Assembly: GCA_016840465.1 (NCBI GenBank)
Contig: JAEOSH010000014.1
Span: 13,495 to 45,494 of the forward strand
Reading direction: 5' to 3'
DNA length: 32,000 bases
Source: Candidatus Baldrarchaeum yapensis
Lineage (GTDB): Archaea > Asgardarchaeota > Baldrarchaeia > Baldrarchaeales > Baldrarchaeaceae
Below are positions 3,601-22,430 of this stretch, piece by piece. A program made the translations under genes and the position numbers. The notes under the pieces were generated by a model. The model had not been told where the DNA came from. It did not search any database and worked only from the letters and a program-made list of their open reading frames with translations. Position 1 is the first letter of the stretch. Each line of letters begins with the position of its first letter.

Positions 3601-4704
3601 CTAGGTAACCACGCTGCCGAGCGCCTCTTTCTCTATAGCCTCCCGTATCTCTATCGCTATCCTCCGCCCCATGCTGATCGGCTCACCAAAGTAAAACTTG
3701 CTGTACTGACTGCCAACGCCCGCGTAGATGTTGGTGCCCCCACCGATCCGAAACGCCACGTCCACAACGTAGATCTTCAAATCGGAAGTAACTATCGATT
3801 GAAGGGTAAACGGACCAATTATCCCGGGAGGATACAACTCCTTAGCCGCCCTCACAAACGCATCCCCCATCTCGAAAACCTTCTGGAGTTGCGACTCCCT
3901 TATCGTCGCCGGCATGTGCCCTATCTCCACATTACGCACAACCACGTCCAAGTCCATCTGGATGAACGCTGGCAACCTGACGAGCCCGTGAACGTTCGTC
4001 TGCAACCTCCTATCTATCCCGTGAAACTCAACATCGCCTCTCACAACCGAGTGGAAATAATTGAAGTTGAAATCGACACCCACCACAAACTCCTCTATCG
4101 ACGCCCTCCTCAACTCCTCCTCTTCCAGTAAACCCCTCTCCATGAAGTCCCTCGCCTTCCTCCAGAAGTCCTTCGAATTCCTCGCAATGAAGAACGCCCT
4201 CTCCACAGAACCGGCCGCCATGGCCTTCACGATGACCGGTCTGTCTATCTCATCGGGAGACTTGAAGGTCTTGGGCCTGAGAATTCCGGCAGCATCAAGT
4301 ATCTTGTAGTAGTTGACTTCCCCGTACCTCTCCTCCGCCCTCAATAACTGACGAGACCCGAAAATCGGAACGTAGAACTCCTCCTCTATGCTCTCGTACC
4401 CGACGTACACAGAAAAACTTCTGTTCGGAACGAAAATCGTGTTCAGCTTCCTCAACTTGTCCTGAACGTTCTCCCTTATAATGTCCCGGAACCTCTCCAA
4501 AACTATGACCTCGTCCGCAAGCCTCCTAAACCTGAGGTACGGAAGCTCCCTCCCCTTCTGGCAAATAACAACAGTCTTGAAACCCTCGTCCTTCGCTCCG
4601 TCCAGAACGTCGAGCGCCGAGTGGCTTCCCAGCACCCCTATGTGTATGTTCTCCCAATCGTATTCCTTCTCCACAAGGGCCGCCATCTCACGGGGGGAAA
4701 TCAT
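3601..4704 (-). CDS. purP: PurP-family ATP-grasp protein, divergent paralog
   Basis: GSHSALDVLDGAK.EGF, RESQL.KVFEMG, PPGIIGPF.LQ, GGGTN and SMGRRIA.EI are present. It has PNRSF and KAMAAGSVERAFF where the canonical enzyme has PHGSF and GAKGGRGYF. SD GAGGTGG. Confidence 0.9.
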   Translation of the reverse strand: MISPREMAALVEKEYDWENIHIGVLGSHSALDVLDGAKDEGFKTVVICQKGRELPYLRFRRLADEVIVLERFRDIIRENVQDKLRKLNTIFVPNRSFSVYVGYESIEEEFYVPIFGSRQLLRAEERYGEVNYYKILDAAGILRPKTFKSPDEIDRPVIVKAMAAGSVERAFFIARNSKDFWRKARDFMERGLLEEEELRRASIEEFVVGVDFNFNYFHSVVRGDVEFHGIDRRLQTNVHGLVRLPAFIQMDLDVVVRNVEIGHMPATIRESQLQKVFEMGDAFVRAAKELYPPGIIGPFTLQSIVTSDLKIYVVDVAFRIGGGTNIYAGVGSQYSKFYFGEPISMGRRIAIEIREAIEKEALGSVVT

Positions 4705-4713
4705 AAAACCACC

Positions 4714-5733
4714 TCACGTGAGCACCTTATCGAGCATCCCATGCTCCTCCGCCATCCTTATCTCGCGCGCAATCCTCCGGCCCATGCTCATCGGCTCATC
4801 AAAATACAGCCAACTGTAGGGGGAACCGTTGATATAAAGGTTGGTGCCCGCAACTATCCTGCCTGAAAACTCAAAAATAACAATTTCGAGATCGCTCCGG
4901 CATACTCCCTCCAGACAGAAGGGACCAATAACGCCCGGCGGCACAAGTTCCTCTGCTGCCCTTACAAATCCTTCGCCGTACTCGAACACCTTTACGAGGA
5001 GGGACTCCCGAACGACAAGAGGTATGTTTCCGACAACCGTAAAGGTGGGCTCACTCAAACTATCGGCATACGGAACGGGCACCCTTCTCAGCCCATCCAC
5101 ATCACTCTCATACCTTATATCGCACCCTAAAAGCTCTAGGCGTTTCATAACAACCGAGTTAAAGTACTGAAAATACATGGGCGTGCCAATCACAAACTCC
5201 TGAATTATGCACTCATCCGGCGAAATGCCAAGACTTTTGCACTTCGAAATAACCTCCTCCGGAGACCTCGCAAGAAAGTATCCTCGCCCACCTTTCGCCC
5301 CGTGCATCTTAACAATTACGAGCCGGTCCACCTCCTCCGGAGACCTAAAAACCCTGGGCACCTTCACACCAGATCGCTCCAGCATTCTCATCTTGAGAAA
5401 CTGATCCGCCTCCCAAATCATAAGCCGCCTGTTACCGAAGATCGGAACATCCAACCTCTCAAGACCTTCAACACCAATGTACTCAACAAAACTGCCATGC
5501 GGAACTATAACTGCGCCCTCCTCGTTTAACCTCCTGATGGCCTCATCGCTGCAAACGTCCCCCATCCCATCAATCAACACAATATCGTCAATGAAGTTCA
5601 AAAATCGAGAATACAGCGAAACTCTATCCCTAGGACACAAAACTATGGTCTTAAAGCCCTCACTCTTCGCACCCCTCAGTATCTGCAATGCACTGTGGCT
5701 CGCAATCGTCGCAATACTCCGCACTTCCCGCAT
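4714..5733 (-). CDS. purP: PurP-family formate-dependent FAICAR synthetase-like protein
   Basis: IATIASHSALQILRGAK, PHGSFVEY, FGNRRL, GAKGGRGYF, YESDVDG, GNIPLVVRESLL, GPFCLE, RIVAGTN and SMGRRIAREI. Confidence 0.92.
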   Translation of the reverse strand: MREVRSIATIASHSALQILRGAKSEGFKTIVLCPRDRVSLYSRFLNFIDDIVLIDGMGDVCSDEAIRRLNEEGAVIVPHGSFVEYIGVEGLERLDVPIFGNRRLMIWEADQFLKMRMLERSGVKVPRVFRSPEEVDRLVIVKMHGAKGGRGYFLARSPEEVISKCKSLGISPDECIIQEFVIGTPMYFQYFNSVVMKRLELLGCDIRYESDVDGLRRVPVPYADSLSEPTFTVVGNIPLVVRESLLVKVFEYGEGFVRAAEELVPPGVIGPFCLEGVCRSDLEIVIFEFSGRIVAGTNLYINGSPYSWLYFDEPMSMGRRIAREIRMAEEHGMLDKVLT

Positions 5734-6265: not shown

Positions 6266-7024
6266 GTGCGCCCGAAAGTATTACAGTTGATAACTGAAGG
6301 CAAGACCAAAAAGGTGTGGGAAACCGAAAATCCCGATCTTGTCATCTTGGAATTCAAAGACGATATCACTGCGTTTGATGGAGCAAAGCATGATGTCATC
6401 AGCGGAAAAGGCGCAATAAACGCCGCAATTTCAGCCAAAATTTTCGAACATCTGAACAAAAACGGAATTCCAACACATTTTGTCGAGTTTGTGGCACCCC
6501 GCTACCACGTCGTAAGACGACTAGAAATGATACCACTCGAGGTGGTATGCCGAAACATAGCCACCGGGCACCTCGTGAAAAGACTACCCATGATAAAGGA
6601 CGGAACGCGCCTCGAGTTCCCGGTACTGGAGTTCTACCTCAAAGATGACAAACTCCACGACCCCCTCATAAACGACCACCACGTCGTCCTGCTAAAGCTG
6701 GCATCTTGGAAGGAAATAGAAGAAATGAAAAAGATAACACTCCGGGTAAATGAAGTGTTGCGCACGTTCTTCGAGGAAAGAGGGCTTATTCTCGTAGACT
6801 TCAAACTCGAGTTCGGAAGAGACCGCAATGGAAAACTCCTCGTGGGCGACGAACTGAACGGAGATGCAATGCGGATCTGGGACATGTACACCGGGAAGAT
6901 ACTCGATAAGGACGTGTACCGGAAGGGATACCCCCTCGACGAAGTGCTCGTGCGATACCGCGAATTTTACAGGAGAGTGGTGGGCGCAGACTTTCCGGGG
7001 GAGGAAGTATGCCTCGCTACATAG
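6266..7024 (+). CDS. purC: SAICAR synthetase
   Basis: EGKTKKVW, FKDDITAFDG, GIPTHF, IPLEVVCRN, DFKLEFG, GDELNGD and DKDVYR. Confidence 0.97.
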   Translation: MRPKVLQLITEGKTKKVWETENPDLVILEFKDDITAFDGAKHDVISGKGAINAAISAKIFEHLNKNGIPTHFVEFVAPRYHVVRRLEMIPLEVVCRNIATGHLVKRLPMIKDGTRLEFPVLEFYLKDDKLHDPLINDHHVVLLKLASWKEIEEMKKITLRVNEVLRTFFEERGLILVDFKLEFGRDRNGKLLVGDELNGDAMRIWDMYTGKILDKDVYRKGYPLDEVLVRYREFYRRVVGADFPGEEVCLAT

Positions 7025-7275
7025 TCGAGGTCCTCATTGAAAACAAGAAGACAATACGGGATCCCGAGGGCGAAACCATCTGCCGGGAACTCATCAATAA
7101 GGGAGGATACGACAGCATAAAGTCCGTAAGGGTCGGCAAACTCCTGAGGATGGAAGTCGAGGGATCCAGCGAGGAGGAAGTGAAGGAACTCGTGACCAGA
7201 ATGTGCAACGACCTCAGAATCTACAACCCCGTCGTCCACTCCTATAGGGTGGAAATCAGAGGGATCACACGGTGA
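7009..7275 (+). CDS. purS: FGAM synthetase subunit PurS
   Basis: DPEGETI, VRVGK and NPVVHSY; 88 aa, lying between purC and purQ with overlapping ends. Confidence 0.95.
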   Translation: MPRYIVEVLIENKKTIRDPEGETICRELINKGGYDSIKSVRVGKLLRMEVEGSSEEEVKELVTRMCNDLRIYNPVVHSYRVEIRGITR

Positions 7276-7976
7276 GAGTCGCCGTTATCCGGTTTCCCGG
7301 ATCAAACTGCGACCTGGACACAGTATTCGTCCTCAGGAAGGTAATAGGCGTGAAAGCCGACCTCGTGTGGCACAAGAACTTCAAAGGAGACTACGACGCA
7401 GTGATACTGCCAGGCGGTTTCTCGTACGGGGATTACCTGCGTGCGGGAATCATCGCGGCCCACAGCCCCGCAATGAAGTACGTCAAGGAAATGGCGCGTG
7501 AGGGACTACCGGTTCTGGGCATCTGCAATGGATTCCAAATACTGATAGAGGCGGGACTTCTCCCGGGAGCGCTGATAAGAAACACGACACTGAAGTTCAT
7601 ATGCAAATGGGTTTTCCTGAAGGTCAAAACCACGCGCACCGCCTTCTCCAACCTCATGAAAAGAGAGCAGGTTCTGAAGATGCCGATCGCGCACAACGAG
7701 GGGAGGTACTTCATAGACGAGAAGGGGCTGAGGGAACTCATGGAGAACGACCAGATAGTCTTCACATACGTTGATGGGGAGGGCAACGAGACCCCGAACG
7801 CGAACCCCAACGGTTCCGTTGCAAACATCGCCGGGGTCTGCAATCTAGAGGGAAACGTCGTAGGGCTGATGCCACACCCCGAAAGGGCCTCGGAAGCCAT
7901 CCTGAGCCCCTACGGAAGCGACGACGGAAAACTTCTGTTCCTTTCCATGAAAAACTTTCTCGAGAGGTGGATGTGA
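7272..7976 (+). CDS. purQ: FGAM synthetase glutaminase subunit PurQ
   Basis: FPGSNCD, PGGFSYGDYLRAG, GICNGFQIL (catalytic Cys), PIAHNEGRY, NPNGS and GLMPHPER. Confidence 0.97.
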   Translation: MRVAVIRFPGSNCDLDTVFVLRKVIGVKADLVWHKNFKGDYDAVILPGGFSYGDYLRAGIIAAHSPAMKYVKEMAREGLPVLGICNGFQILIEAGLLPGALIRNTTLKFICKWVFLKVKTTRTAFSNLMKREQVLKMPIAHNEGRYFIDEKGLRELMENDQIVFTYVDGEGNETPNANPNGSVANIAGVCNLEGNVVGLMPHPERASEAILSPYGSDDGKLLFLSMKNFLERWM

Positions 7977-10216
7977 TGATAGTAGAGCGGCCCGACATGC
8001 AGGTTAAGGTCAACCTCACAAGGGAGGAGCTGGAAAAGGCAAAAGAGATGCTCGGGCGGGAACCCAACATTGTCGAACTCGGAATGATAGACATCATGTG
8101 GAGCGAACACTGCTCCTACAAGTCCTCCCGGGAAGTCCTGAAAATCCTGCCTAGGGAGGGGGAACACGTAATCATAGGGCCGGGACAGGACGCCGGCGTC
8201 GTGGATATAGGAAACGGGCTCGCGGTAGTTTTCAAGATAGAATCTCACAACCACCCCTCTGCGGTGGACCCCTACAACGGAGCCGCAACCGGAGTTGGAG
8301 GAATAATAAGGGACATCCTCTGCATGGGCGCCCGCCCCATCGCCCTCGTCGACTCCCTCAGGTTCGGATTCCCCTCCAGCCCCCACGCCAGGTGGCTGTT
8401 CAGATACGTCGTTAAGGGAATCGCAGATTACGGAAACTGCACCGGGATTCCAACGGTAGCAGGTCAGGTGGAGTTTGACCCCTCCTTCGAGAGAAATTGC
8501 CTTGTCAACGTCGGCTGCGTGGGAATTGCAAGGAAAGACAGAATAATGCCAAGCGTTGCCTCAAACCCTGGGGACGTCCTCGTCCTCGTCGGGGGCTCCA
8601 CCGGAAGAGATGGAATCCACGGCGTCACCTTCGCATCCAAAACCCTCAGCGAAAAATCCGAGGAGGAGAGGTCCTCCGTACAAATAGGAGATCCCTTCAT
8701 GAAAAAACTGGTGATCGAGGCGACGCTGGAGGCCGTGGAGACGGGATATGTAAGGGGACTGAAGGATCTGGGAGGCGGAGGACTGACGTGCGCAACTTCC
8801 GAGATGGCCGCAAAGGGCGGAACCGGGGTGGAAATAGAACTTTCTAAGGTCCACCTCAGAGAGGAGGGAATGACCCCCTACGAGATAATGCTGAGCGAGT
8901 CGCAGGAGCGCATGCTCTTCGTTGTAGATCCAAAAGGTCTCGATAAAGTACTGTCGGTGTTCGAAAAGTACGAGATTCCGTACTCAATAATAGGAAGAGT
9001 CACCGACACCAGAGAGGTCGTCGTCAAACTGAACGGAAAAGTGGTGGCGCGGGTTCCGGCAAAGCTACTTGCCGAAGCCCCCCTTGCAAAGCGCACATCT
9101 AAAAAGCCAGCATACGTCGAGAAGTTGCGTGACATACCACCTCCGCCAATGCCGGAAAACCTCGAAGAAACCCTTCCTCAACTCCTCTCATCACCTAACA
9201 TTGCAAGTAAGGAGTGGGTATACCAGCAGTACGACCACGAGGTCGGAATAAGAACCGTAGTAAAGCCGGGACAGGCAGATGCAGCCGTCCTCAGAATCAT
9301 AGAGGAAGATGGAGGAAACAGGGGAATCGCAATAAAGGCTGACTGCAACTCGAGGCATATGTATCTGGATCCGTTCAACGGCGCCGCCGGTGCTCTGGCA
9401 GAATGCTGCAGGAATATAGTTGCAGTTGGAGGAAAACCACTGGCCTTTGTCGACTGCGCAAACTTTGGCAACCCCGAAAAACCCGAAATATTCTGGCAGT
9501 TCGAAATGGCAATCAAGGGTCTCGCATACATGGCCCGAGGTCTGGGAATACCATGCGTGGGCGGAAATGTCAGCTTCTACAATGAAGATGAAACCACAGG
9601 GAGGGCGGTGAAACCGAGCACCGAGGTCCTAGCAATCGGGCTGGTTGAGGACCTCAAACACGTGACAACAATGGCATTCAAATCTGCGGGAGACGTAATC
9701 GTCGTGGTGGGTAAGACCTTCAGAGAGGTGGGCGGATCGGAATACTACTACATAGTCCACGGGATAGAGGGAGGAAAAGTACCCGCTGCCGATCCGAATA
9801 GGGAGAAGTCCTCCATGAACGCCGTTTTGGAGGGAATAAGGCGCGGATACGTCACCGCTGCTCATGACATTTCGAGAGGGGGATTTGCGGTCGCGCTCGC
9901 AGAAATGGCAATCCAAGGAGGAAGAGGAGCGGAGGTCTTCTTGGACAATATGCCGCGGGAACCCATGCGCATCGACGAACTCCTCTACTCGGAGAGCAAC
10001 GCAAGATTCATCATCACGGTCGAGGAAAAAAACCTCGATAACTTCATATCACTATGCCGCAACACCGGCGCACCCTTCGGGATAATTGGAAGGGTTTCGA
10101 GAAGTAACAGGCTCATTCTCAGGTACGAGAGCCTTGTTCTCGAGTATGATGTCCACCACCTGGAGAAAGCTTGGAAGATGCCAATATGGGAGTACATGGA
10201 GGGGCTGCGCTCGTGA
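7976..10216 (+). CDS. purL: FGAM synthetase subunit PurL (small form)
   Basis: MWSEHCSYKSS, ESHNHPS, GRDGIHG, DLGGGGL, SESQERM, QYDHEV, GGNVSFYN and HDISRGG. ATG 7976 follows SD GAGGTG; GTG 7967 is an alternative. Confidence 0.97.
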   Translation: MIVERPDMQVKVNLTREELEKAKEMLGREPNIVELGMIDIMWSEHCSYKSSREVLKILPREGEHVIIGPGQDAGVVDIGNGLAVVFKIESHNHPSAVDPYNGAATGVGGIIRDILCMGARPIALVDSLRFGFPSSPHARWLFRYVVKGIADYGNCTGIPTVAGQVEFDPSFERNCLVNVGCVGIARKDRIMPSVASNPGDVLVLVGGSTGRDGIHGVTFASKTLSEKSEEERSSVQIGDPFMKKLVIEATLEAVETGYVRGLKDLGGGGLTCATSEMAAKGGTGVEIELSKVHLREEGMTPYEIMLSESQERMLFVVDPKGLDKVLSVFEKYEIPYSIIGRVTDTREVVVKLNGKVVARVPAKLLAEAPLAKRTSKKPAYVEKLRDIPPPPMPENLEETLPQLLSSPNIASKEWVYQQYDHEVGIRTVVKPGQADAAVLRIIEEDGGNRGIAIKADCNSRHMYLDPFNGAAGALAECCRNIVAVGGKPLAFVDCANFGNPEKPEIFWQFEMAIKGLAYMARGLGIPCVGGNVSFYNEDETTGRAVKPSTEVLAIGLVEDLKHVTTMAFKSAGDVIVVVGKTFREVGGSEYYYIVHGIEGGKVPAADPNREKSSMNAVLEGIRRGYVTAAHDISRGGFAVALAEMAIQGGRGAEVFLDNMPREPMRIDELLYSESNARFIITVEEKNLDNFISLCRNTGAPFGIIGRVSRSNRLILRYESLVLEYDVHHLEKAWKMPIWEYMEGLRS

Positions 10217-11646
10217 TTTCTAAATGCATGGAGAAATGCGGCGTCATAGGAGTATATTCTAGGAACGCCGGAGACTCTCAGTGTGCCAGGAGAATATATG
10301 AGGGGCTCGTCGCACTGCAACATAGGGGGCAGGAGAGCGCGGGAATCTACATGTTTAGCGGAGATGGGAGGATAGCGGGGATCAAGGGATCGGGGCTCGT
10401 CACGGAGGTATTCAGCGCCAAGAGCCTAGAGTTGCTAAAGGGATCAGTGGGAATAGGACACGTCAGATATAGCACAACGGGTACCGGAACCACCGATGAA
10501 ATCCAACCGTTCTTCGTGAGAGAGGGAAGGTTCTCATTCGCCCTCGCGTTCAACGGGACGATTACGAACTTTGCAGAAGTGCGGAAGTGGCTCAGAAATC
10601 AAGGATTTTACTTCAAAACCAACACGGACACCGAGGTGCTTGCAAAAACAATAGCGTTCTATCTCTCCGAAGAGGGCTATGACTACTTCGCGGCACTCGA
10701 AAGAACCATGGAGGCGCTGGACGGGGCTTTCTCGGTAGTGCTTATCAACGAGAAGGGAGAGATGCTGGGGATGAGAGATCCCAGGGGATTCAAACCTCTG
10801 TGCCTCGGAGCAACATCGGATCCAGAAATGTACATCTTAGCTTCCGAGAGCGTCGCAATAGACGCCCTGCATGGTTTCCTCCTCGGCGACGTCTACCCAG
10901 GTGAGATTATCAGAATATCGGACGGCGTTGTCGAACGAAAAGTTGCGTGCAAGTCAGAAAAACACTCCCACTGCATGTTCGAGTACGTCTACTTTGCAAG
11001 GGAAGACTCCATAATCGAGGGGATCCATGTATACAATGTCAGGTGGAGACTAGGAGCTATACTCTCAGAACTGTATCCCACCGACGCAGACTACGTAATA
11101 CCCGTTCCGGACACGGGAATAGTCCCCGCCATAGGATTCTCCCAAGCCTCAGGAATTCCGCTGGCTTACGGCCTCGTGAGGAACAAGTACGTTGGGCGCA
11201 CGTTCATAATGCCACAGCAACAGATGAGGGAGGGAGCGGTCCGGGTAAAACTCGGGGTCATAAGATCAGTGGTTTCGGGGAAAAGGATGGTGGTCGTCGA
11301 TGACAGCATCGTCAGGGGAACCACCTCCAAGTTCATCGTAGAACTCCTGAAAAGCTTCAACGCGGCAAAGGTGCACCTCAGAATCTGCTGCCCGCCCATA
11401 GTCTCCCCGTGCTACATGGGAATAGACTTCCCATCCCATAAGGAACTCATAGCATCCAAGATGGACGTGGAAGGTGTCAGGAGGTTCATAGGAGCCGATT
11501 CCCTTGGCTACATGACAATAGACGGGCTTGTCCGCGGAATCGGACTTCCAAAGGGAGAGTTGTGTTTGGCGTGCCTCACCGGGGAATACCCGCTAAAGCG
11601 CCCGGAGGATGTCGACAAGCTGGAGGAGATATTCAAGAGGGGGTGA
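10213..11646 (+). CDS. purF: Amidophosphoribosyltransferase (canonical)
   Basis: Propeptide then CGVIG (Ntn Cys1), LQHRGQE, GHVRYST, FNG, DPRGFKPL, CMFEYVYF, VDDSIVRGTT, PCYMGID and CLAC. Start is GTG 10213 (4-bp overlap with purL) or ATG 10228. Confidence 0.96.
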   Translation: MISKCMEKCGVIGVYSRNAGDSQCARRIYEGLVALQHRGQESAGIYMFSGDGRIAGIKGSGLVTEVFSAKSLELLKGSVGIGHVRYSTTGTGTTDEIQPFFVREGRFSFALAFNGTITNFAEVRKWLRNQGFYFKTNTDTEVLAKTIAFYLSEEGYDYFAALERTMEALDGAFSVVLINEKGEMLGMRDPRGFKPLCLGATSDPEMYILASESVAIDALHGFLLGDVYPGEIIRISDGVVERKVACKSEKHSHCMFEYVYFAREDSIIEGIHVYNVRWRLGAILSELYPTDADYVIPVPDTGIVPAIGFSQASGIPLAYGLVRNKYVGRTFIMPQQQMREGAVRVKLGVIRSVVSGKRMVVVDDSIVRGTTSKFIVELLKSFNAAKVHLRICCPPIVSPCYMGIDFPSHKELIASKMDVEGVRRFIGADSLGYMTIDGLVRGIGLPKGELCLACLTGEYPLKRPEDVDKLEEIFKRG

Positions 11647-11650
11647 TGTT

Positions 11651-12985
11651 TTGAGCGGGATTTTCGGAATTTTCGCGTTTGATGAGATATGGCGCGTTTC
11701 CAAATTCGTATATTACGGACTCCTGGCCCTCCAAACAAGAGGCCAGGAGGTTTGTGGAATAGCGTGTGGAGGATCGGACGGAATAGTAACATGTGCAAAG
11801 AGGGGCTACGTCGATCAATCCTTCAAGGAGAATGAGTTAGAAGGAATAGGCGGATGGTACGGCATCGGCTACGTGGGCGCGGACCCCCAAAATGTACAAC
11901 CCGTGACGGTCCGCCATAACGGCATCACCGTTTCCGTCTGCTATTCCGGGAGAATATTTAACCTGCGGGAGCTCACGAAAAGGTACAATCTCCCGGAAAA
12001 GGAAAACGAAAGCATACTGTTTGCGAAGATTCTGGCATCGGAAGTTAGAAAGAGTGGTCCCATGAACGCCGCCGCGCTTCTGATGGAAGAACTTGAGGGT
12101 GTGTACACGGTGCTGGCAATAACAGACCAAAAGGAGATGGTTGCCTTCAGAGATTCACATGGCGTGAAGCCGCTGACAATCGGGAGTTATGGATTCGATT
12201 ATGGAGCAATAGCATCCGAAAGCGCAGGACTAGAAGTCATAGGCGCCGACTACAAGTCCGACATCATGCCAGGCGAGATATACCTCTTTACAAGCTACAG
12301 CATAGAAAGAGAGCAGGTGAGAGCTCCACAACCGAAATACTGCGCATTCGAGTACGTGTACTACGCCCGCCCCGACTCCATAATAAACGAGAAGTCGGTG
12401 TACGATGTAAGGGTGAAAATAGGCGAGTACCTCGCAAAGGAGAGCCCCGTTGACGTGGATGTTGTCGTAGGTGTGCCTGAAACGGCAATACCCTTCGCAA
12501 TGGCGTATTCAAATGCCACCGGAACACCCATAGCCATGGGATTCATGAGAACGGGGCGCCACACAAGAACCGCAATAAAGCCCACGTACTTCGAGAGACT
12601 CGTGGGGGTGCAGCTGAAGCTTAACCCCATAAAGAGCGTGTTCTCCGGCAAAAGGGTCCTGATAATCGACGACAGCGTCGTGAGGGGAACCACAATGAAG
12701 AACGTAATACACCTTCTCAGAAACAAGATGGGGGCCAAGGAGGTGCATGTGAGGATCGGTAGCCCCCGACTCGTGAACCCCTGCCCCTACGGAACCGAGG
12801 TCCCCACCCGCGACGAACTGATAGCCGCAAACCTGAGCGAGGAGGAGGTCGCAATAGTCACCGGCGCGGACTCCTTCAAGTGGCTCTCGATAGACTCCCT
12901 CATCAAAGCGATCGGATTTCCACGCGAGTACCTCTGCCTTAGGTGTTTTGGAGGTGATGGGGATGAAGGTCCTACTCATAGGTAG
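11651..12985 (+). CDS. purF: PurF paralog lacking the glutaminase nucleophile
   Basis: TTG start after SD GGGGTGA gives MSGIFG instead of CGxxG. LQTRGQE; the GHVRYST equivalent is degenerate. PRTase motif IDDSVVRGTT and Fe-S cysteines (CAFEYVY, PCPYG, CLRC) are retained. Confidence 0.9.
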   Translation: MSGIFGIFAFDEIWRVSKFVYYGLLALQTRGQEVCGIACGGSDGIVTCAKRGYVDQSFKENELEGIGGWYGIGYVGADPQNVQPVTVRHNGITVSVCYSGRIFNLRELTKRYNLPEKENESILFAKILASEVRKSGPMNAAALLMEELEGVYTVLAITDQKEMVAFRDSHGVKPLTIGSYGFDYGAIASESAGLEVIGADYKSDIMPGEIYLFTSYSIEREQVRAPQPKYCAFEYVYYARPDSIINEKSVYDVRVKIGEYLAKESPVDVDVVVGVPETAIPFAMAYSNATGTPIAMGFMRTGRHTRTAIKPTYFERLVGVQLKLNPIKSVFSGKRVLIIDDSVVRGTTMKNVIHLLRNKMGAKEVHVRIGSPRLVNPCPYGTEVPTRDELIAANLSEEEVAIVTGADSFKWLSIDSLIKAIGFPREYLCLRCFGGDGDEGPTHR

Positions 12986-14438
12986 TGGATCACGTGAGCA
13001 CGCAATTGCGGACGCCCTTGCCAGAAGCGTGCATGAGCCGAAGATTTTCGCAGTAATGTCAAATAGAAATCCCGGCATTATCAGGATCTGTGAGAGCACG
13101 GGAGGAGAGTACTTCATCGGAAAGATCACAGACCCCCAATTTGTCAGAGAAATAGGAGAAAGAGTATCCCCCGACTTCGCGTTCATCGGACCGGAAGAAC
13201 CCCAGTTCCATGGAGTATCCGATGCACTTGAGGAGGCGGGCATTCCGTGTGTCGGCGCAAGGGAGAAACTTAGTGAGATAGAGAGGTCGAAGGCATTCAT
13301 GAGGAGGCTCATGTGGAAGTACAGGATACCCGGAAGGCTAAGGTTCAAAGCATTCAAGAACGTGGAGGAGGCGATCGCCTACATCAAGGAGTACGCCGAA
13401 AGCATCGCACTAAAGCCGGCAAGGCAGGCGGGAGGCAAGGGAGTCAAGGTGATCGCGGACATACAGGCGTACCTCAGGAGGGAGAGGACCGAGGTCAAGG
13501 AGAAGCATGCAAAGAAGATCTACGAGGAGCACATGAAACCGTACGACGACATAGAGGACAAAATACTGATAGAGGAGAAGGTCGACGGGCCGGAGTACAC
13601 CCTCCAGTGCTTCACCGATGGAAGGACGGTGCTCCCCCTGCCCCTGGTCCAAGACAATAAGAACGCCTTCGAGATGGACATAGGGCCGGAAACCGGCGGG
13701 ATGGGGTCGATATCGGGGAAGGGCTTTCTACTACCATTCATTGAGGAGGATGAGTTCCGAGAGTCAGTGAAAATAGTGGAATCCGTGGTGAGGGCCCTAG
13801 AGAAGGAGTTCGGCATGAGATATCACGGCGTGATCTCCGGTCAGATGATGCTCACCGCCCTCTGGGGACCCACGATCATAGAATTCTATTCCCGGTTCGG
13901 AGACCCCGAGGGCGTGAACGTCCTCCCGATACTCAAAACCGACCTCGTCGAAATATCCGAGGCAGTAATCTCGGAGAAACTCCACAAGATGAAGATAGAG
14001 GTGGAGGAGAAGGCAACCGTCGTCAAGGCAATAGCCCCTCAGGGATACCCCAACAGGAGAGATCTCGCAAAGGGGCACCCGATAGCCGTGGACGAAAGGG
14101 CAATAGAGGAGCAGGGAGCAAGGGTCTTCTACGGCTCCGTGAACGTCGATAACGGAAGGTTGATAACTGGTGGCTCACGCGCCGTGGAGATATTCGCATG
14201 CGCCGAAACAATAGAGGAGGCGAGCAAGATCGTGGATAAATGCGTTAAGTACGTTAGATGCCTGGACGGATGGGGGCTCTTCTACAGAAGTGACATAGGC
14301 TCGAGCACCCTCCTGCACAGGAGAATGGAACTCGCAGAGCTGGTGAGGAACGTCTACCGCTACAGGAGGTCCAAGGGCATCATCGGGATCAAGATAGACT
14401 GGATTCCCGGAGTTGGAAAAATAGTGTACGAGAGCTGA
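12963..14438 (+). CDS. purD: Phosphoribosylamine--glycine ligase (GAR synthetase), long archaeal form
   Basis: KVLLIGSGSREHAI, GPEEP, SKAFMR, GGKGVKV, IEEKVDGPE, GPETGGMG, RFGDPE and GGSRA. ATG 12963 follows SD GGAGGTGA. Confidence 0.96.
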   Translation: MKVLLIGSGSREHAIADALARSVHEPKIFAVMSNRNPGIIRICESTGGEYFIGKITDPQFVREIGERVSPDFAFIGPEEPQFHGVSDALEEAGIPCVGAREKLSEIERSKAFMRRLMWKYRIPGRLRFKAFKNVEEAIAYIKEYAESIALKPARQAGGKGVKVIADIQAYLRRERTEVKEKHAKKIYEEHMKPYDDIEDKILIEEKVDGPEYTLQCFTDGRTVLPLPLVQDNKNAFEMDIGPETGGMGSISGKGFLLPFIEEDEFRESVKIVESVVRALEKEFGMRYHGVISGQMMLTALWGPTIIEFYSRFGDPEGVNVLPILKTDLVEISEAVISEKLHKMKIEVEEKATVVKAIAPQGYPNRRDLAKGHPIAVDERAIEEQGARVFYGSVNVDNGRLITGGSRAVEIFACAETIEEASKIVDKCVKYVRCLDGWGLFYRSDIGSSTLLHRRMELAELVRNVYRYRRSKGIIGIKIDWIPGVGKIVYES

Positions 14439-14449
14439 GGTGCGTGGCA

Positions 14450-15532
14450 ATGGCTAAGGATAGGGTTAGGGTTGCAGCGATCCAGATATACATGCACGGG
14501 GTCCCGAGCGAGGAGAGGTGGAGAAAGCACATCCACTGGATGAATGAGGCGGTGAGGCTCGGTGCGGACCTCATATGCACGACGGAGTTTTTCCTGGGAG
14601 GCGAAACTTACTGGAGAAAGGAGAGAATAGAGTTCTTCAGGAACTTCTGCAAAGAGAATGGGGTGTACGTCGCGGCGCACTCCTACCAGAGGGTCAAGTT
14701 GGATGGAGACAAGCGGGTGACCAAGAGCAGAATAATATTCTTCGCCCCCGGTGGCGAAATCATCGGAACCTTCGACAAAGTGCATCTCTACCCCACCGAT
14801 GTCCACTTGGCACGCGCGACGCAGGGTACCGACTTCCCGGTGTTCGACACCAAAATTGGAAAAATAGGGTTTGGGGTCTGCGAAGACCTCATGATCCCGG
14901 AACACATACGATGCCTCAGGTCAAGAGGCGCCGAAATAGTGATAATCCCGAGCAGAATGCCGGGGAACTATCTCGTCTGCTGGAAGGATGTCGCAGTTGT
15001 GAGGGCAATAGAGAGCTGCGTCTACATAGTGACAATAGGGGAGGCGGGAATGCACGCGGTGGGGACCCTCGCGGTGAGCCCGCGCCTCGATAATCCAATA
15101 GTTGCCGAAATGGGTCCCCACGAGGGCGTGATGATCGCAGACCTGGATCTCGCATGGCTCAGGTCCGAGCGCAATCGGAAACCAGTACTCGATCAACTCA
15201 GGAAAAAGGAGGATGTCGAGGAACTTTCCGTGAAGACGAAGGTCCACGACTTCGTTTTTAGGCTTGAGGACTGGCAACCTGAGCTGTACATTCCGGTGTA
15301 CGCGGCGGCAAGCATCGACAAGAGGGTCAGGATGTTTTCGGAGAAGGGGATATGGGTCGAAAGGGAGGTTGTGGAGAGGTTGCTGGACACCTACAGCCGA
15401 CTGATGACTGTGGTAGCCCAAATAGAGGAGATCGCTGACGAGAACCTCAAGGTGCGGCTGCCATCGATCGCGGTAATAAAAAGCGATTTTGAATTCTTAA
15501 AACGCCTCTTAGAGGTGCTGAAGGGTGAGTGA
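14450..15532 (+). CDS. Carbon-nitrogen hydrolase (nitrilase superfamily) with C-terminal extension
   Basis: [17 protein letters not shown] (Glu), FDKVHLY (Lys), [11 protein letters not shown] (Cys), VRAIE and [18 protein letters not shown] overlaps the purD stop, and the stop codon overlaps the purE start by 8 bp. Confidence 0.9.
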
Positions 15533-15971
15533 GGAGATAGAAGTCGCAATAGTAATGGGAAGTAAAAGTGATGAGCACGTTGCCAAAAAGGCGGCTGACG
15601 CCCTTTCTGAGTTGGGGATAAAGTACGAAGTTAAGATCCTTTCCGCCCACAGAAACCCCGATGAACTGCGTGAATACATCAGAAAATGCAAAGCTAAGGT
15701 TTTCATCGCAATAGCCGGGCTTTCGGCACACCTTCCCGGATTCATAGCATCACACACCGATAAACCGGTGATAGGAGTCCCCGTTAACGTACAACTCGGC
15801 GGACTCGATGCCCTTCTTTCCATGGTCCAGATGCCCCCGGGTGTGCCAGTAGCGACCGTGGGAATAGACAATGGCAGAAACGCCGCACTTCTCGCCGCAA
15901 GAATACTCGCATTGTTCGATGAAAGGATAAAGAGAAAGTTGGAGGAGGCGAAAAGTGAGAGGAGAGGGTAG
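15525..15971 (+). CDS. purE: AIR carboxylase / N5-CAIR mutase
   Basis: [59 protein letters not shown]. Confidence 0.97.
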
Positions 15972-17037
15972 CGGGTGGACGTACGCAAAAGCGGGTGTCG
16001 ATGAAGGGAAGGTTTCCAAAGCCTTATCCGGAGTTTGGAAGATGCTCATAGAGACCTTTGATTTTAGAAAGGGAAGAAAAGCTCACCCCTTGAACGTGAT
16101 AGGGCACTACGCTGGACTATTAGATGTGGGAACGGACGTCCTGCTGGCATTGCACGTAGACGGAGTGGGCTCAAAGGTTCTAGTGGCGCAAATGCTGAAC
16201 AAATACGACACGGTGGGTATAGACCTCGTGGCGATGCACGCAAACGACCTCATATCGATAGGGGCCGAGCCGGTGGCACTCGTAGATTACCTAGCTGTTA
16301 AGGAACCCGACGAGCAACTCATCCAAGAAGTCATGAAGGGAGTCGTGGAAGGGGCAAAGATCGCGAGAATGTGCGTGATAGGAGGAGAAACGGCGGTATT
16401 GCCAGACGTAATCACCGGATACGAGAGCGGCAAGCCATTTGACCTTTCGGGGATGAGCCTGGGCGTCGTTGAGAGGGATAAGGTCATACTGGGAGATAAG
16501 GTCGAGGTGGGAGACGCCGTGATAGGGCTCGCGAGCAGTGGGATCCACTCCAACGGTCTCACACTTGCAAGGAGGGTTCTCTTCGAGGAGGCGAAAATAC
16601 CACCCTCCGCGTACATTGAGGAGTTGAGGAAAACACTAGGGGAGGAGTTACTCACTCCCACGAGGATATACGTTGACGAGGTGCTGAGCATTTTAGAAAG
16701 CGGAATAGAAGTTCACGGGCTGGCGCACATAACGGGTGGCGCGTTCACAAAGCTGAAGAGGATCTCGAGAGGAAGGGTCAGGATAAGGCTGGATAAGATG
16801 CCGGAGCCTCAGCCGATATTTAAGATGATACAGCGCCTGGGAAATGTCGAAACGGAGGAAATGTACAGGACGTTCAATATGGGAATCGGATTCGTAATAG
16901 TGGCGCCGCGGCGGGAGATTGAGAACATATCATCGGTACTGGAGGAAAAGAGAACTACATACTACGTCCTTGGCCGAGTTGAAAGCGGATCCGACATCGT
17001 CATAAGAGCGTATGATGGAACCCTCATTGTTTTCTGA
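15955..17037 (+). CDS. purM: AIR synthetase (FGAM cyclo-ligase)
   Basis: [42 protein letters not shown] and [10 protein letters not shown]. Confidence 0.97.
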
Positions 17038-17346: not shown

Positions 17347-19338
17347 TCAAATCTCGATGTTGGTATTGTTGAACTCCACGATCGCCCAGCGGTCCTCGAC
17401 CTTGATCGCTACTAGGTGCACCTTATCTCCCGGTTTCGTCAGCAGCAACTCGTACCACTGGGTGACGTTCAGATCCTGAGCGGTGGCTTCCACAAAGTAC
17501 GTTTCGGTGCCGCTCACGTTTTTCACGTAGAGAACCACATGCGTCTCCCCATCGCTGATGTAGCTTGTGACATTGAGCACCTCGAAGTCTCCCTCTATCC
17601 TGTTCTGATATCCCACCCCGACGGCCCTCGCTAGGACCCTCTTGTAGCCCTCTACAACCCTCGCCACGAAGTCACTGCCGTGCTCGTTCTCCTCAATTTC
17701 CGCCCAGTAGAAGTAGCTTATATTGTGCGCGTTTATCAAAACCAGCCCCTTCAGGAGGATCGTCGCCTCCTTTCTCCAGTAAATCGGAACGTACCACGTC
17801 CACACGGTCTCGTTCGTTATCGGATGCTTAACGGGGTACAGCATCCCCATGGTTGCAAAGTACTCGCCAACCGCCGGCTTCGGGAACAGAGACTCAGCGT
17901 AGTCGTGAGCAACCCTTCCACTTATGAGACCAAGCCTGCGGAAGTCGTGGAACACGATACCCTCCTTGCTGATCCTGAAGATCCCCGCAAGCGTCCTATC
18001 ATTCCCCAAGGGGTGCACGTGTATGAACGCCTCGACCCTCATGGTGTCCGGGTTTATTATGTACCTCGTGTCCTCGGACATCTCGAGGCGGTCCATCGAC
18101 GCCGGAATCGTGAGGAATCCCCGGGCGAAGAAGTCTATCGTCCCGTTCCTGTAATACTGCCCGATGTTGGAGACTATCGACTCTATCAGGTCCTCATCGC
18201 ATATCTGGGGGATCCAGTCGGGCGCATCCGCTGGCTCGTATCTCCCAACAATCCTCCCCTCACTGTCAAATACGAGAATCTCCCCGGGAACGTCATACAG
18301 GTAAGGCGTCACCTCCACCCTCATCAGGACAAGCACAATCTCCCCCTTGTCGTCAAAGGTGAAGTACGCCCTCGACGCGGTTATGCTCGTGTCCTCGAGG
18401 AAACTCTTCAGGAAAACCTCTCTCCCTCCTAGCAAAACGTTGCCCACGTAGAACCTCTTCTTTATGAGATCTGGAGGCCTGAGAGGGTCATTTGCATGCA
18501 CGACTATAAAGCCGAGTATGTAGTTCTCCGCAAAGAGGTTCGCCGGATACACCGGCGCGATCCATACGAGTTCTCCGTTCCACACAGTTATGTGAGGATC
18601 ACCCAGCTTGGCGTTGGATCCAAACTCCGAAAGATACCTGCTCATGGTGGACGCCGCGAGACCCTCGTCCACAAGCCTAACCATCGACGGCGGAACCTCG
18701 GATTTAAAGGGAGGCTCTTCCGTAACCTTCACGTAGCTGTTGAAGTGCTCCGCCTGCCAATAGGGGGGCAGTATCGAGATGCACGAGAGACAGATGACCA
18801 GCAGGAAGATCGGCGCTATGACGGTCCTTCTTCCGCCGAAGGGAATCTTAAAGAATACGTCGGGCGCGAAGAGAATCCTAAGGAATATGACAAGATAGTA
18901 GTAGATGTAGAGGGGAAGCAGCAGTAGCATTCCAATGAGCATCGCCAGTATCGCGAATATTGCAACCCCGATCGCGCCCCATATTGTGAACTCGTCCACT
19001 GCCCTCCTTTCCATCCTGAGATACCTGAGACCCTCCTCAGCGTAGCTCTGCAAAGTGTAATATCGATTGAACGTGAACCTCATCAGCGAGAGTCCGAGAA
19101 ACAATAAGAATATCGTTCTCACCAGAAGCTCCGGGTTCCCGGGAGGGGCTTCCGGCCAGAGGTACAAGGGTAGCAAAAATGCATTGATTATTCCCTCGGC
19201 AACGAGGAATAGCACAAAGAAGACCCTGCGCCATAGCTTCTCCGCGCCTGGTGGGATACCGAAAACCCTAGGAAAAGCCATGGGCAAAATGAACATGAGC
19301 ACCGCAAGGTGCGCCGCCGTGATCATAACAGTCGGCAT
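17347..19338 (-). CDS. Large membrane protein: about 6 N-terminal TM helices plus a predicted extracellular domain
   Basis: Long ORF with a hydrophobic first ~200 aa and seven N-X-S/T sequons in the C-terminal part. ATG 19338 preferred, because the ORF-track start 19482 lies inside the PrpD relic's 3' end. Confidence 0.85.
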   Translation of the reverse strand: MPTVMITAAHLAVLMFILPMAFPRVFGIPPGAEKLWRRVFFVLFLVAEGIINAFLLPLYLWPEAPPGNPELLVRTIFLLFLGLSLMRFTFNRYYTLQSYAEEGLRYLRMERRAVDEFTIWGAIGVAIFAILAMLIGMLLLLPLYIYYYLVIFLRILFAPDVFFKIPFGGRRTVIAPIFLLVICLSCISILPPYWQAEHFNSYVKVTEEPPFKSEVPPSMVRLVDEGLAASTMSRYLSEFGSNAKLGDPHITVWNGELVWIAPVYPANLFAENYILGFIVVHANDPLRPPDLIKKRFYVGNVLLGGREVFLKSFLEDTSITASRAYFTFDDKGEIVLVLMRVEVTPYLYDVPGEILVFDSEGRIVGRYEPADAPDWIPQICDEDLIESIVSNIGQYYRNGTIDFFARGFLTIPASMDRLEMSEDTRYIINPDTMRVEAFIHVHPLGNDRTLAGIFRISKEGIVFHDFRRLGLISGRVAHDYAESLFPKPAVGEYFATMGMLYPVKHPITNETVWTWYVPIYWRKEATILLKGLVLINAHNISYFYWAEIEENEHGSDFVARVVEGYKRVLARAVGVGYQNRIEGDFEVLNVTSYISDGETHVVLYVKNVSGTETYFVEATAQDLNVTQWYELLLTKPGDKVHLVAIKVEDRWAIVEFNNTNIEI

Positions 19339-19456
19339 GCCGACCCCCACCCAAAACCTGATAGCAATAACTATTAACGCTTTCCATTCGCGTCCACAAC
19401 CCACCACTACGCCGATAGTAACACTTACATCCTTCCGAGTATCAACAACGGCCCGA

Positions 19457-20406
19457 TCAACACTTGCAGAGCAGATCCACAACCTCAGAAACCGTCCTTA
19501 CTTTCTCTAGGTTCTCTATGGTCCTTATGACCTCCCTCACCCTTTCATTCCCCAACACGCCGGATGCCTCCCTCGAAAACCTCTCCTCCGCGGGATAAGG
19601 ATTCCCTGCCGCACCCACCGGAACCTCACACTCGGCCGACAGCACCTCACCGTTCCTCAGTTTCACCTTCACCCTCGCGCCGAACGGCATCTTAAGCGTT
19701 GATAGCAACAAGCCCGGCATCAACTCCACCCTCACCTTCTCCATAAGCATCCAAACATCGGAGTCAAGGGCTCTCTCAACCGTAAGATCCTGAGGACTGA
19801 CCGATCCACGAAGCAGCGCAACCGCAACGTTGAACGGTGTGTAAAAGTTCAGAGCAACGGACGACCGAAATCTCTTCACCCATTCTGGATTTGCAAAGAG
19901 ACGGGCAAGGTCATCCATAAGGAGGGTCATGAAGTGAACGTAAACAACGATCTCCTCCACCTCCTTCGGCTTTATCTTCCTCTTACGGGAGATTTCAGTC
20001 GCGCAGTCTATCACGGCGCTCACATACGCGCACCCCGGGTGCACCTTTATCGAGAGGGTGTCCGTAACCTAAGCTTCCCCTAAATCGTTGCTCAACATCG
20101 AGACAATTGCTCCATCCGCCACCAGATTGCAGAAGCCTATAGGATGCCCCAGAACGTCGGGAGCCGCCGTGAAACCCCCTCGGCAAGTCTGGCTGCCATT
20201 ACCCCCAGCATCGCCGGAACCGCCAACGTCAAAACCTTAGTATGAGGGCCCATGAAACCCCTGATCGCTATGAACGTCGCCTGGTACGCCGCAATACCTA
20301 TGGCGTTCCTAATCCTCTCTTTGTCCAATCCCAGGAGCCGAGAAGCCGCACACGCCGACCCTATCAGGTGAACGTAGTTCCAAAGCTGACCGTTGTGTAC
20401 CCCTTC
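19457..20406 (-). pseudogene. prpD: MmgE/PrpD-family (2-methylcitrate dehydratase-like) relic
   Basis: Stitched translation: HLIGSACAASRLLGLDKERIRNAIGIAA...AARLAE, then a frameshift near 20175-20180, then GFTAAPDVL...LGEA*VTDTLSIKVHPGCAY with an in-frame TAG at 20070-20072, then PFGARVKVKLRNGEVL...PVGAAGNP. The N-terminal third is absent. Confidence 0.8.
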
Positions 20407-21443: not shown

Positions 21444-22430
21444 TTAATATTTATTTTTATTTTTCTCTGTTTTCTCCTCCTCGGGCATCAGGCCGAACGA
21501 CTTCTCGTATTTAAGCATCACTTCCTCCTTGGGCAGGTACTCCTTTTCGTACTCTAAGAACTTGGAAAGACCCCCGACCTCGAACAATTTCACAAGCGTT
21601 CCCAACGGATGCTCCTTAATTTTCTCCTCGATCTCTATCTGCGCCTGGGTACCCTTCTTTATCAACTCCTGATAGAAGTTCCAGACCGCAACTGCCTCGA
21701 CCTGCAGTGGAGTTATCGGGAACACCACGGAAACTACGCCCAGCTTCTTGCACTCCTCTATAGACAGCCTAGGCGATAAGCCGGTCGGGTGATAAGCAAC
21801 GGGCGCCTTCACCTCTTTTACAACCCTTCTGATCTCCTCCTTGCTGAGGAGAACATCCGAGCAGACGACATCTGCACCGGCGGCGACGTACGCCTTCAGC
21901 CTCTTTATCACCTCTTCAAGCCCTCCCCCTACTGCGTTCCTCGCATCGGTCCTCGCAACCAGAATTATGTTGTCATCCTCCTCCTTTATCACCCTCTTCG
22001 CCGCCTTTATCTTCCCCACCATCTCCTCTATCGATATCAGCATCTTGCCCTTGAGATGACCACACCTTTTGGGTTGCACCTGATCCTCTATATGCAGAGC
22101 GGCAACTCCCGCGCGTATGTACTCCCTGACGGTCCGCATCACGTTTATTGCGTTTCCATATCCCGTCTCTGCATCTGCAATCACCGGAAGCTTTGTGGCG
22201 GCGGTGATGCACCTTACGTTCTCCACCATTTCGGTAGCGGTGATGAGCCCAATATCTGGGAGCCCATACCTCTCCAGGGATGTGCACGCGCCCGAAACGT
22301 AGACCGCCTTGAACCCCGCCATCTCCGCCAGCTTTGCAAAGAGGGCATTGTGAGCGCCGACCACTATTAATGGGTTATGTTCACGATCTTCCAGAAGTTT
22401 TCGGAGCCTAGCACTGGGGGACAGGCGCAT
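21444..22430 (-). CDS. prpB: Isocitrate lyase/PEP mutase family lyase, methylisocitrate lyase-like
   Basis: GAHNALFAK, GFKAVYVSG, GLPDIGL, ADAETGYG, HIEDQVQPKRCGH, ARTDA and AGAD. SD GAGGTGG. Exact substrate uncertain. Confidence 0.88.
   Translation of the reverse strand: MRLSPSARLRKLLEDREHNPLIVVGAHNALFAKLAEMAGFKAVYVSGACTSLERYGLPDIGLITATEMVENVRCITAATKLPVIADAETGYGNAINVMRTVREYIRAGVAALHIEDQVQPKRCGHLKGKMLISIEEMVGKIKAAKRVIKEEDDNIILVARTDARNAVGGGLEEVIKRLKAYVAAGADVVCSDVLLSKEEIRRVVKEVKAPVAYHPTGLSPRLSIEECKKLGVVSVVFPITPLQVEAVAVWNFYQELIKKGTQAQIEIEEKIKEHPLGTLVKLFEVGGLSKFLEYEKEYLPKEEVMLKYEKSFGLMPEEEKTEKNKNKY

Follow-up and report, generated by a model that had tools for sequence, protein, structure and literature searches.

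A predicted nitrilase-fold amidase encoded between purD and purE in the purine operon of an Asgard archaeon

In the purine operon of an Asgard archaeon a gene for a predicted thiol amidase of the nitrilase family is located between purD and purE. The window, i.e., the whole stretch of 32,000 nucleotides that was analysed, derives from an Asgard bin of 2.27 Mb (100 contigs, 96% complete), and the initial annotation, which had pointed to a nitrilase-family gene at this position, was confirmed. We know of no textbook de novo purine step that uses a nitrilase-fold enzyme, and for this reason a conserved enzyme of this kind within a pur operon would be new. The case described here is narrower and represents a lineage-specific insertion; its interest lies in the slot which the amidase occupies, namely that of purT or purN, in a genome without detectable PurN or PurT. 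Our tentative interpretation is that of an accessory amidase which supplies formate or formyl groups to the purine pathway, in a role similar to that of PurU with a different fold.

The amidase gene and its product

The elements of the gene and of the encoded protein are as follows:

14437-14442, + strand: Shine-Dalgarno-like GAGGTG, overlapping the purD stop, 7 nt 5' of the amidase ATG (from the sequence; layout repeated in contig L021)
14450-15532, + strand: amidase ORF, PF00795, 360 aa, stop included in the coordinates
14450-15205, + strand: catalytic alpha-beta-beta-alpha core, residues 1-252 (alignments, codon positions, pLDDT ~95)
14585-14587, + strand: Glu46 (column conserved in 93 of 94 homologs)
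14777-14779, + strand: Lys110 (column conserved in 92 of 94 homologs)
14798-14800, + strand: Asp117, replacing the second Glu (alignment)
14879-14881, + strand: Cys144 (column conserved in 93 of 94 homologs)
14879-14887, + strand: Cys144-Glu145-Asp146 (alignment, codon positions)
15206-15289, + strand: linker up to the end motif WQPELY, residues 275-280 (alignment)
15290-15529, + strand: 80-residue C-terminal helical tail (AlphaFold2 secondary structure)
15525-15532, + strand: amidase stop and purE GTG start overlapping by 8 nt (from the sequence)

The tight coupling of the amidase to both neighbors, which had been claimed before, was borne out by the junction sequences. The ribosome binding site indeed overlaps the purD stop codon (TGA, 14436-14438) upstream of the ATG at 14450, and the purE GTG start at 15525 precedes the end of the amidase stop codon (15530-15532), which yields the described overlap of 8 bp. 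A second GAGGTG at 15512-15517 is located 7 nt 5' of the purE GTG. The ATG at 14450 as start codon is backed by the ortholog on contig L021, where the layout of stop, ribosome binding site and ATG is identical and the spacer is 1 nt shorter. Moreover, a strain variant carries a 1-nt deletion at 14443 in the spacer between purD and the amidase, and the spacer is therefore non-coding.

The CN_hydrolase profile PF00795 matched residues 7-239 of the 360-aa protein with 94.6 bits at a cut-off of 23.2. An AlphaFold2 model based on 94 homologs reached a mean pLDDT of 88, with about 95 across residues 1-250, and its best Foldseek matches were CN hydrolases throughout (E about 1e-21), including D-carbamoylase, N-carbamoylputrescine amidohydrolase, NitFhit, Nit2 and a nitrilase and an amidase from Pyrococcus. 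The modeled core and these structural matches both correspond to the alpha-beta-beta-alpha sandwich fold. ESM Atlas searches by feature and by shape returned generic CN hydrolases only. Best sequence matches among solved structures were the P. abyssi nitrilase, mouse Nit2 and PH0642.

None of the curated NCBIfam equivalogs came near its cut-off with the amidase, and the protein could be assigned neither to NF033621 (Nit1, deaminated-glutathione amidase; 55.5 bits versus 355) nor to NF040852 (archaeal nitrilase; 54.8 versus 500), TIGR03381 (N-carbamoylputrescine amidase; 43.5 versus 410) or NF009803 (formamidase AmiF; 21.2 versus 406). The NAD synthetase model NF010588 (NadE) scored 24 bits versus 479; the amidase consists of a single domain and the helical tail.

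The catalytic triad Glu46-Lys110-Cys144, which had been described as intact, was found in alignment columns kept by at least 92 of the 94 homologs. In the C-E-E-K tetrad the second glutamate, located in the loop at Lys+7, is replaced by Asp117; the alignment places this Asp opposite Glu120 of the P. abyssi enzyme and opposite the Glu of the PWEP motif in the closest clade. Mutations of the second Glu that inactivated an amidase reportedly included a change to Asp. This residue is described as essential in several characterized members of the superfamily in PMC6946656, which cites Soriano-Maldonado 2011 and Weber 2013. Further near-invariant positions are altered: TTE replaces LPE at the catalytic Glu, CED replaces CYD and ES replaces EN. 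The resulting Cys-Glu-Asp motif is presumably reminiscent of the glutaminase domains of NadE. In the alignment, a basic WRKER stretch (residues 55-59), which is specific for the lineage, is found in the segment after Glu46.

The helical extension after WQPELY (RRPxLY in relatives) had been estimated at about 65 residues; it is present in the model, but comprises 80. Predicted helices cover residues 277-299, 305-328, 331-336 and 338-359, with a pLDDT of 57-82 compared to about 95 in the core. The tail could be aligned in part with just one homolog, the 357-aa protein P0007, and had neither a Pfam match nor a paralog in its own genome. Neither the tail nor any other part of the amidase showed similarity to PurT or PurN (best E > 1), and a remnant of purT or purN was rejected on this basis.

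Pur operon and pathway inventory

The following pur genes surround the amidase:

3601-4704 and 4714-5733, - strand: two purP, formate- and ATP-dependent formyl ligase family (PF06973 and PF06849)
6266-7024, + strand: purC
7009-7275, + strand: purS, named by size and position only
7272-7976, + strand: purQ
7967-10216, + strand: purL
10171-11646, + strand: purF1, Cys nucleophile is Cys23 of the ORF as listed (TIGR01134, 457 bits)
11609-12985, + strand: purF2 (PurF'), Ser16 at the position of the Cys nucleophile (TIGR01134, 317 bits, under the cut-off of 350)
12948-14438, + strand: purD, long form, 496 aa (TIGR00877, 376 bits; orthologs 62-71% identical in five Asgard families)
15525-15971, + strand: purE, SAHR and AHLPG motifs, class I type (TIGR01162, 191.8 bits)
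15955-17037, + strand: purM (TIGR00878, 378 bits)

On the + strand, neighboring genes from purC to purM overlap or are separated by no more than 11 nt, and between purD and purM this strand showed no terminator-like sites. The two purP genes upstream of the operon on the opposite strand are the only copies in the whole genome. Outside the operon, neither the 711-codon ORF at 17347-19482 (- strand), which is convergent with purM, matched Pfam or NCBIfam, nor did the 401-codon ORF at 910-2115 (+ strand) match Pfam. An ORF at 19457-20044 (- strand) contains only the C-terminal domain of MmgE/PrpD and lies near a gene of the PEP-mutase/isocitrate-lyase family (21444-22430, - strand); it could be a split or truncated gene of the methylcitrate type.

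The gene order purF1-purF2-purD and the long PurD (62-71% identity) are common to five other Asgard families. The additional C-terminal stretch of about 40 residues is kept in families f4, f8, f10, f18, and f19; the remaining Asgard PurD proteins comprise about 440 aa and are about 40% identical to the long form. No purD was found in four relatives of the genome from the same order. The position downstream of purD differs between the operons:

Family f8: purE directly after purD, gap of about 30 nt
Family f18: purE directly after purD, gap of about 135 nt
Family f10: purN-purE-purM directly after purD
Family f19: purT directly after purD
This genome: amidase after purD, followed by purE-purM

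At the 15 related Asgard loci compared the amidase was absent from the junction of purD and purE. PurF2 next to purF1 is conserved across six Asgard families (the window and loci L023-L037) with a variable N-terminal nucleophile: families f8 and f18 have Cys at this position, f19 shares Ser with this genome, f4 has Val and f10 has Ala. The PurF2 of the window had been described as lacking the Cys, and this holds true: Ser16 is found at the position of the nucleophile, and in the Ser-type proteins of this genome and f19 the oxyanion Asn is also replaced by Ser. In the PurF2 tree this genome is placed beside f19 (support 94/91), which also has two PurP genes. Tree and slot contents together therefore indicate that the closest operon type differs from the one described here by purT versus the amidase. 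A search of two f19 genomes (G042 and G058) with the amidase gave distant matches only.

PF00551 had no match in the genome, so neither PurN nor PurU is encoded. PurT was detected neither by its model nor by tblastn with the f19 protein, and PurK, PurH1, and PurO were without a match in the genome. It further contains no MGS/PurH2 domain other than that of carbamoyl-phosphate synthase, and no FdhA scored above the model cut-off. As PurN, PurT, PurU, and PurH1 are missing, both formylations must use formate or some other source. A hidden divergent PurT among the ATP-grasp proteins of the genome was considered and rejected, since the candidates were assigned to other families. One is carbamoyl-phosphate synthase and one is an ATP-grasp_3 protein with a hydantoinase-A-like partner; the two others we take to be an ATP-grasp_5 protein of the acyl-CoA synthetase type and, as read from its translation, a LysX/RimK-like ligase.

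PurN and PurT are also absent from five other Asgard genomes with purD (G015, G005, G212, G122, and G239), three of which are closed as single contigs; searches of G015 and G005 with the amidase gave distant matches only. Because other Asgard genomes share this gap without the amidase, it does not single out the enzyme. The same applies to the missing IMP cyclohydrolase and PurK, which were rejected as an explanation of the amidase because these gaps are common to relatives without it: PurO and a PurH2/MGS domain outside carbamoyl-phosphate synthase are absent in f19, G005, and G015 as well, and PurK is absent in this genome (G000), G010, G039, and G005, despite the class I motifs of purE.

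The lack of an archaeal GAR formyltransferase is a recognized gap (PMC3261824), which still existed in PMC9012536, and the several Asgard genomes without PurN and PurT extend it into the Asgard archaea. The formylation of GAR in archaea without PurN and PurT as well as the source of formate for PurP and PurT in combination with methanopterin have been open questions at least since 2011 (PMC3261824), and were so still in 2022 (PMC9012536). The formate for PurT comes from PurU in E. coli, and purU of haloarchaea is found in clusters with pur genes; in archaea with methanopterin PurU cannot serve as a source of formate (PMC3261824).

Orthologs, homologs and selection

Searching 5.8 billion proteins by a word index returned the amidase itself, one protein with 34% identity and one very distant match. 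When 1.84 billion cluster representatives were searched exhaustively with HMMER, four proteins below 1e-30 were identified, three of which are 37-42% identical; the fourth is a fragment of 88 aa with 66% identity. This fragment is encoded on contig L021 (ENA, 598 bp) and represents the sole ortholog beyond the amidase's own population. The first 312 nt of L021 encode the C-terminus of a PurD which is 86% identical to that of the window, followed by the stop codon, the ribosome binding site, the ATG and the N-terminus of the amidase, which shares 66-73% identity with the amidase of the window. Nucleotide identity amounts to 73-77%, and the GC content is 44% in L021, 51% in the whole window and 54% in its purD and amidase genes. 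L021 thus belongs to another species carrying the same junction of purD and the amidase. Neither the whole protein nor an alignment of the two N-termini as query revealed further orthologs in genome or metagenome contigs. A 291-bp contig from the hydrothermal-vent run X4, which is about 84% identical to positions 14840-15039 of the window, may represent a third relative at a greater distance.

Between L021 and the window dN was 0.13 for the amidase and 0.07 for purD, with saturated synonymous sites. The two orthologs hardly differ in the loop that follows the catalytic Glu, and this is their most conserved part. In a strain with about 95% identity from a hydrothermal-vent run, six synonymous and three non-synonymous changes were found within codons 254-302. 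The amidase gene is under purifying selection. DNA of the window occurs in metagenomes of hydrothermal vents and sediments.

Homologs outside the lineage are at most 42% identical (34-42% for the best full-length matches), and none is linked to pur genes. In the phylogenetic tree the amidase groups with the long-branched proteins P0007, P0010, and P0012 (support 98/97); this group is nested in a clade of 14 members (100/100) including Asgard proteins from families f15 and f17. The amidase belongs to a small uncharacterized archaeal clade. Genes neighboring the homologs encode an ABC transporter together with a Ras-like GTPase, an SPFH protein with an RsmB methyltransferase, a thiolase, a HAD-like protein with a PfkB kinase and a GlcD/GlcF-like pair, a gamma-glutamyltranspeptidase and an enolase. 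purD was found in none of the five f15 genomes and not in the single f17 genome. As the homologs of the clade are located away from pur genes and purD was not found in f15 and f17, the ancestral role of the clade was not in purine synthesis. Within the genome of the window three other, ordinary CN hydrolases are encoded, which are 25-34% identical in partial alignments, and the pur-linked amidase is not a recent internal duplicate.

The initial annotation had called for a comparison of the homologs' gene neighborhoods. Linkage to pur genes recurs in L021 and thereby within the narrow lineage, but with no other homolog, and recurrence across independent lineages was not observed. Because it is restricted to this lineage, the linkage largely corresponds to a one-off insertion.

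Two further observations concern the homologs. P0007 is encoded in a tight run of five genes on an archaeal metagenome contig (L019/L020, 6947-12840), consisting of a HAD-like protein, the CN hydrolase, a PfkB kinase, an FAD_binding_4 protein and a Fer4_8/CCG protein, which may form an uncharacterized pathway. Many of the next-best matches, such as P0014, P0017, P0019, P0020, P0023, and P0025, comprise 530-690 aa with two tandem CN-hydrolase domains. A NadE-like ancestry via these long proteins was rejected, since they are tandem double CN hydrolases and not NAD synthetases.

Possible functions and comparison with known systems

Based on the fold, the triad and the operon we infer a substrate, a product and a link to purine synthesis as follows. 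The gene of the predicted thiol amidase would have entered the operon between purD and purE in just one lineage of Asgard archaea (Baldrarchaeia-like), and the enzyme would be made together with those of the pathway. Attack of Cys144 on the carbonyl group of a small amide, presumably of the N-formyl or formamide type, would form a thioester, from which water would then free the acid. Formate and an amine or ammonia would thereby be delivered to a pathway relying on formate-using ATP-grasp ligases, i.e., the two PurP. With AmiF, the superfamily includes a member that is able to release formate. We favor formate supply, with due caution, because the pathway is formate-dependent, PurU is lacking, FdhA is not found above the cut-off and the coupling is tight in two species. 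On the other hand, a specific similarity to formamidase is missing, with NF009803 far below its cut-off, and the second catalytic Glu is replaced by Asp117. Moreover, the linkage to pur genes is limited to one narrow lineage, the nearest Asgard homologs occur in f15 and f17, where purD was not found, and f19 runs the same formate-type pathway, with distant amidase matches only in the two genomes searched.

A serious rival, which we consider just as likely as formate supply, is a general-purpose Nit-like or aliphatic amidase which, following a lineage-specific insertion, uses the pur promoter and has no purine-specific role; it could serve in detoxification, in the salvage of nitrogen or in metabolite repair of a generic kind. 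In this case the gene would merely illustrate that an operon can tolerate unrelated inserts. The restriction of pur-linked relatives to its own population and a 598-bp contig points in this direction, as do the neighbors of the 34-42% full-length matches (ABC transporters, Ras-like GTPase, thiolase, enolase, gamma-glutamyltranspeptidase, PfkB kinase), the related operons with purE directly after purD and the best model and structure matches, which are Nit1, Nit2 and archaeal nitrilase/amidase. However, the insert between two essential coupled genes was kept in two species with saturated synonymous sites and has its own coupling signals on both sides. In addition, the genome already possesses three ordinary CN hydrolases elsewhere, and the surroundings of the active site are remodeled (TTE, CED, ES and the conserved WRKER loop).

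The amidase might instead be a functional replacement of PurT, i.e., an ATP-independent GAR transformylase working via a formyl-thioester, or a counterpart of PurU in organisms with methanopterin; we regard this as rather improbable. For example, a formyl group bound to methanofuran or methanopterin could serve as donor. If true, either role would provide the first handle on the long-missing archaeal GAR formylation. In a direct replacement, which is likewise doubtful and marginally more so, a formyl-thioester formed at Cys144 from an N-formyl or formamide donor would be transferred to the glycine amine of GAR without ATP. By analogy, such chemistry would be akin to the acyl transfer by amidases and apolipoprotein N-acyltransferase, and genuine N-acyl transferases do exist in the superfamily. 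The slot after purD, which contains purT in the sister type f19 and purN in f10, is consistent with this reading, as is the failure to detect PurN and PurT in a genome that is 96% complete; a phosphate could be bound by the WRKER loop beside the catalytic Glu, and the archaeal gap in GAR formylation is a recognized one (PMC3261824; PMC9012536). It is opposed by the five other Asgard genomes with purD and without PurN and PurT, of which G015 and G005 gave distant amidase matches only. Furthermore, any formyl donor is hypothetical, the gene is confined to one lineage, and the bin may simply miss purT.

The remaining explanations rank behind formate supply and the general-purpose amidase. A repair function in a hot habitat, where N-carbamoylated or wrongly acylated amines of PRA, GAR or AIR would be hydrolyzed to the free intermediate, is unlikely. 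It would agree with D-carbamoylase and N-carbamoylputrescine amidohydrolase among the closest structural matches, with the metabolite-repair enzymes Nit1 and Nit2 among the closest sequence models and with the occurrence of the DNA in metagenomes of hydrothermal vents and sediments, but the scores for these families are far below the cut-offs, and the amidase is absent from related thermophilic lineages that have the same operon. The proposal of the initial annotation that ammonia is supplied to the Cys-less PurF2 became disfavored and is now very unlikely. According to this proposal a stand-alone glutaminase of the nitrilase type would feed NH3 to PurF2, as in glutamine-dependent NAD synthetase. 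The replacement of both the Cys nucleophile and the oxyanion Asn by Ser would suit such a role, and PurF' was considered possibly ammonia-dependent by Brown et al. (PMC3261824). However, f19 has the same Ser-type PurF2 and f4 and f10 have the Val and Ala types, and at the Asgard loci examined no such amidase accompanies purD; Crenarchaeota likewise have a Cys-less PurF' (PMC3261824), PurF1 keeps its Cys, and the NadE model scored low (24 bits versus 479). A catalytically crippled scaffold or regulator, which after the loss of the second Glu and the addition of the helical tail would bind pathway enzymes, is the least probable reading: Asp117 replaces a residue whose mutation reportedly inactivated an amidase (Weber 2013, as cited in PMC6946656) and the 80-residue tail is shared in part with P0007 only, but Glu46, Lys110, and Cys144 are all kept, and it is in the active-site loop that the two orthologs agree best.

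Among known systems, the P. abyssi nitrilase (3ivz, E 1.7e-14) and the P. horikoshii amidase PH0642 (1j31 and 6ypa, E 2.5e-12) share fold and triad with the amidase and are likewise archaeal; they are thermophilic and about 24% identical to it. Unlike the amidase, they comprise 262 aa without a helical tail, keep the second Glu and are encoded outside pur operons. Nit1 and Nit2 (omega-amidase) are the top NCBIfam and PDB matches (NF033621; 2w1v, E 2e-13) with the same triad and hydrolyze amides of small molecules, whereas the amidase scores far below the cut-off. AmiF, a fellow of the superfamily which releases formate and NH3, serves as model for the favored mechanism, although membership of the amidase is not supported. 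The analogy to PurU is functional only and concerns a pur-encoded hydrolase feeding a formate-dependent formyl ligase (PMC3261824); its fold (PF00551) is unrelated. PurT in f19 and PurN in f10 share the position after purD with the amidase, but differ in fold and chemistry and have no sequence similarity to it. The glutaminase domain of NadE shows that the fold can act as ammonia donor, whereas the amidase lacks a fused synthetase domain, and Lnt (apolipoprotein N-acyltransferase) shows the fold as N-acyl transferase; the amidase is without a membrane domain, its CN-hydrolase domain beginning at residue 7. A literature search retrieved no paper that connects a CN hydrolase with purD and purE. 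Fold and chemistry of the amidase are thus already known; new are its C-terminal tail, the Asp in place of the second Glu and its context within a pur operon.
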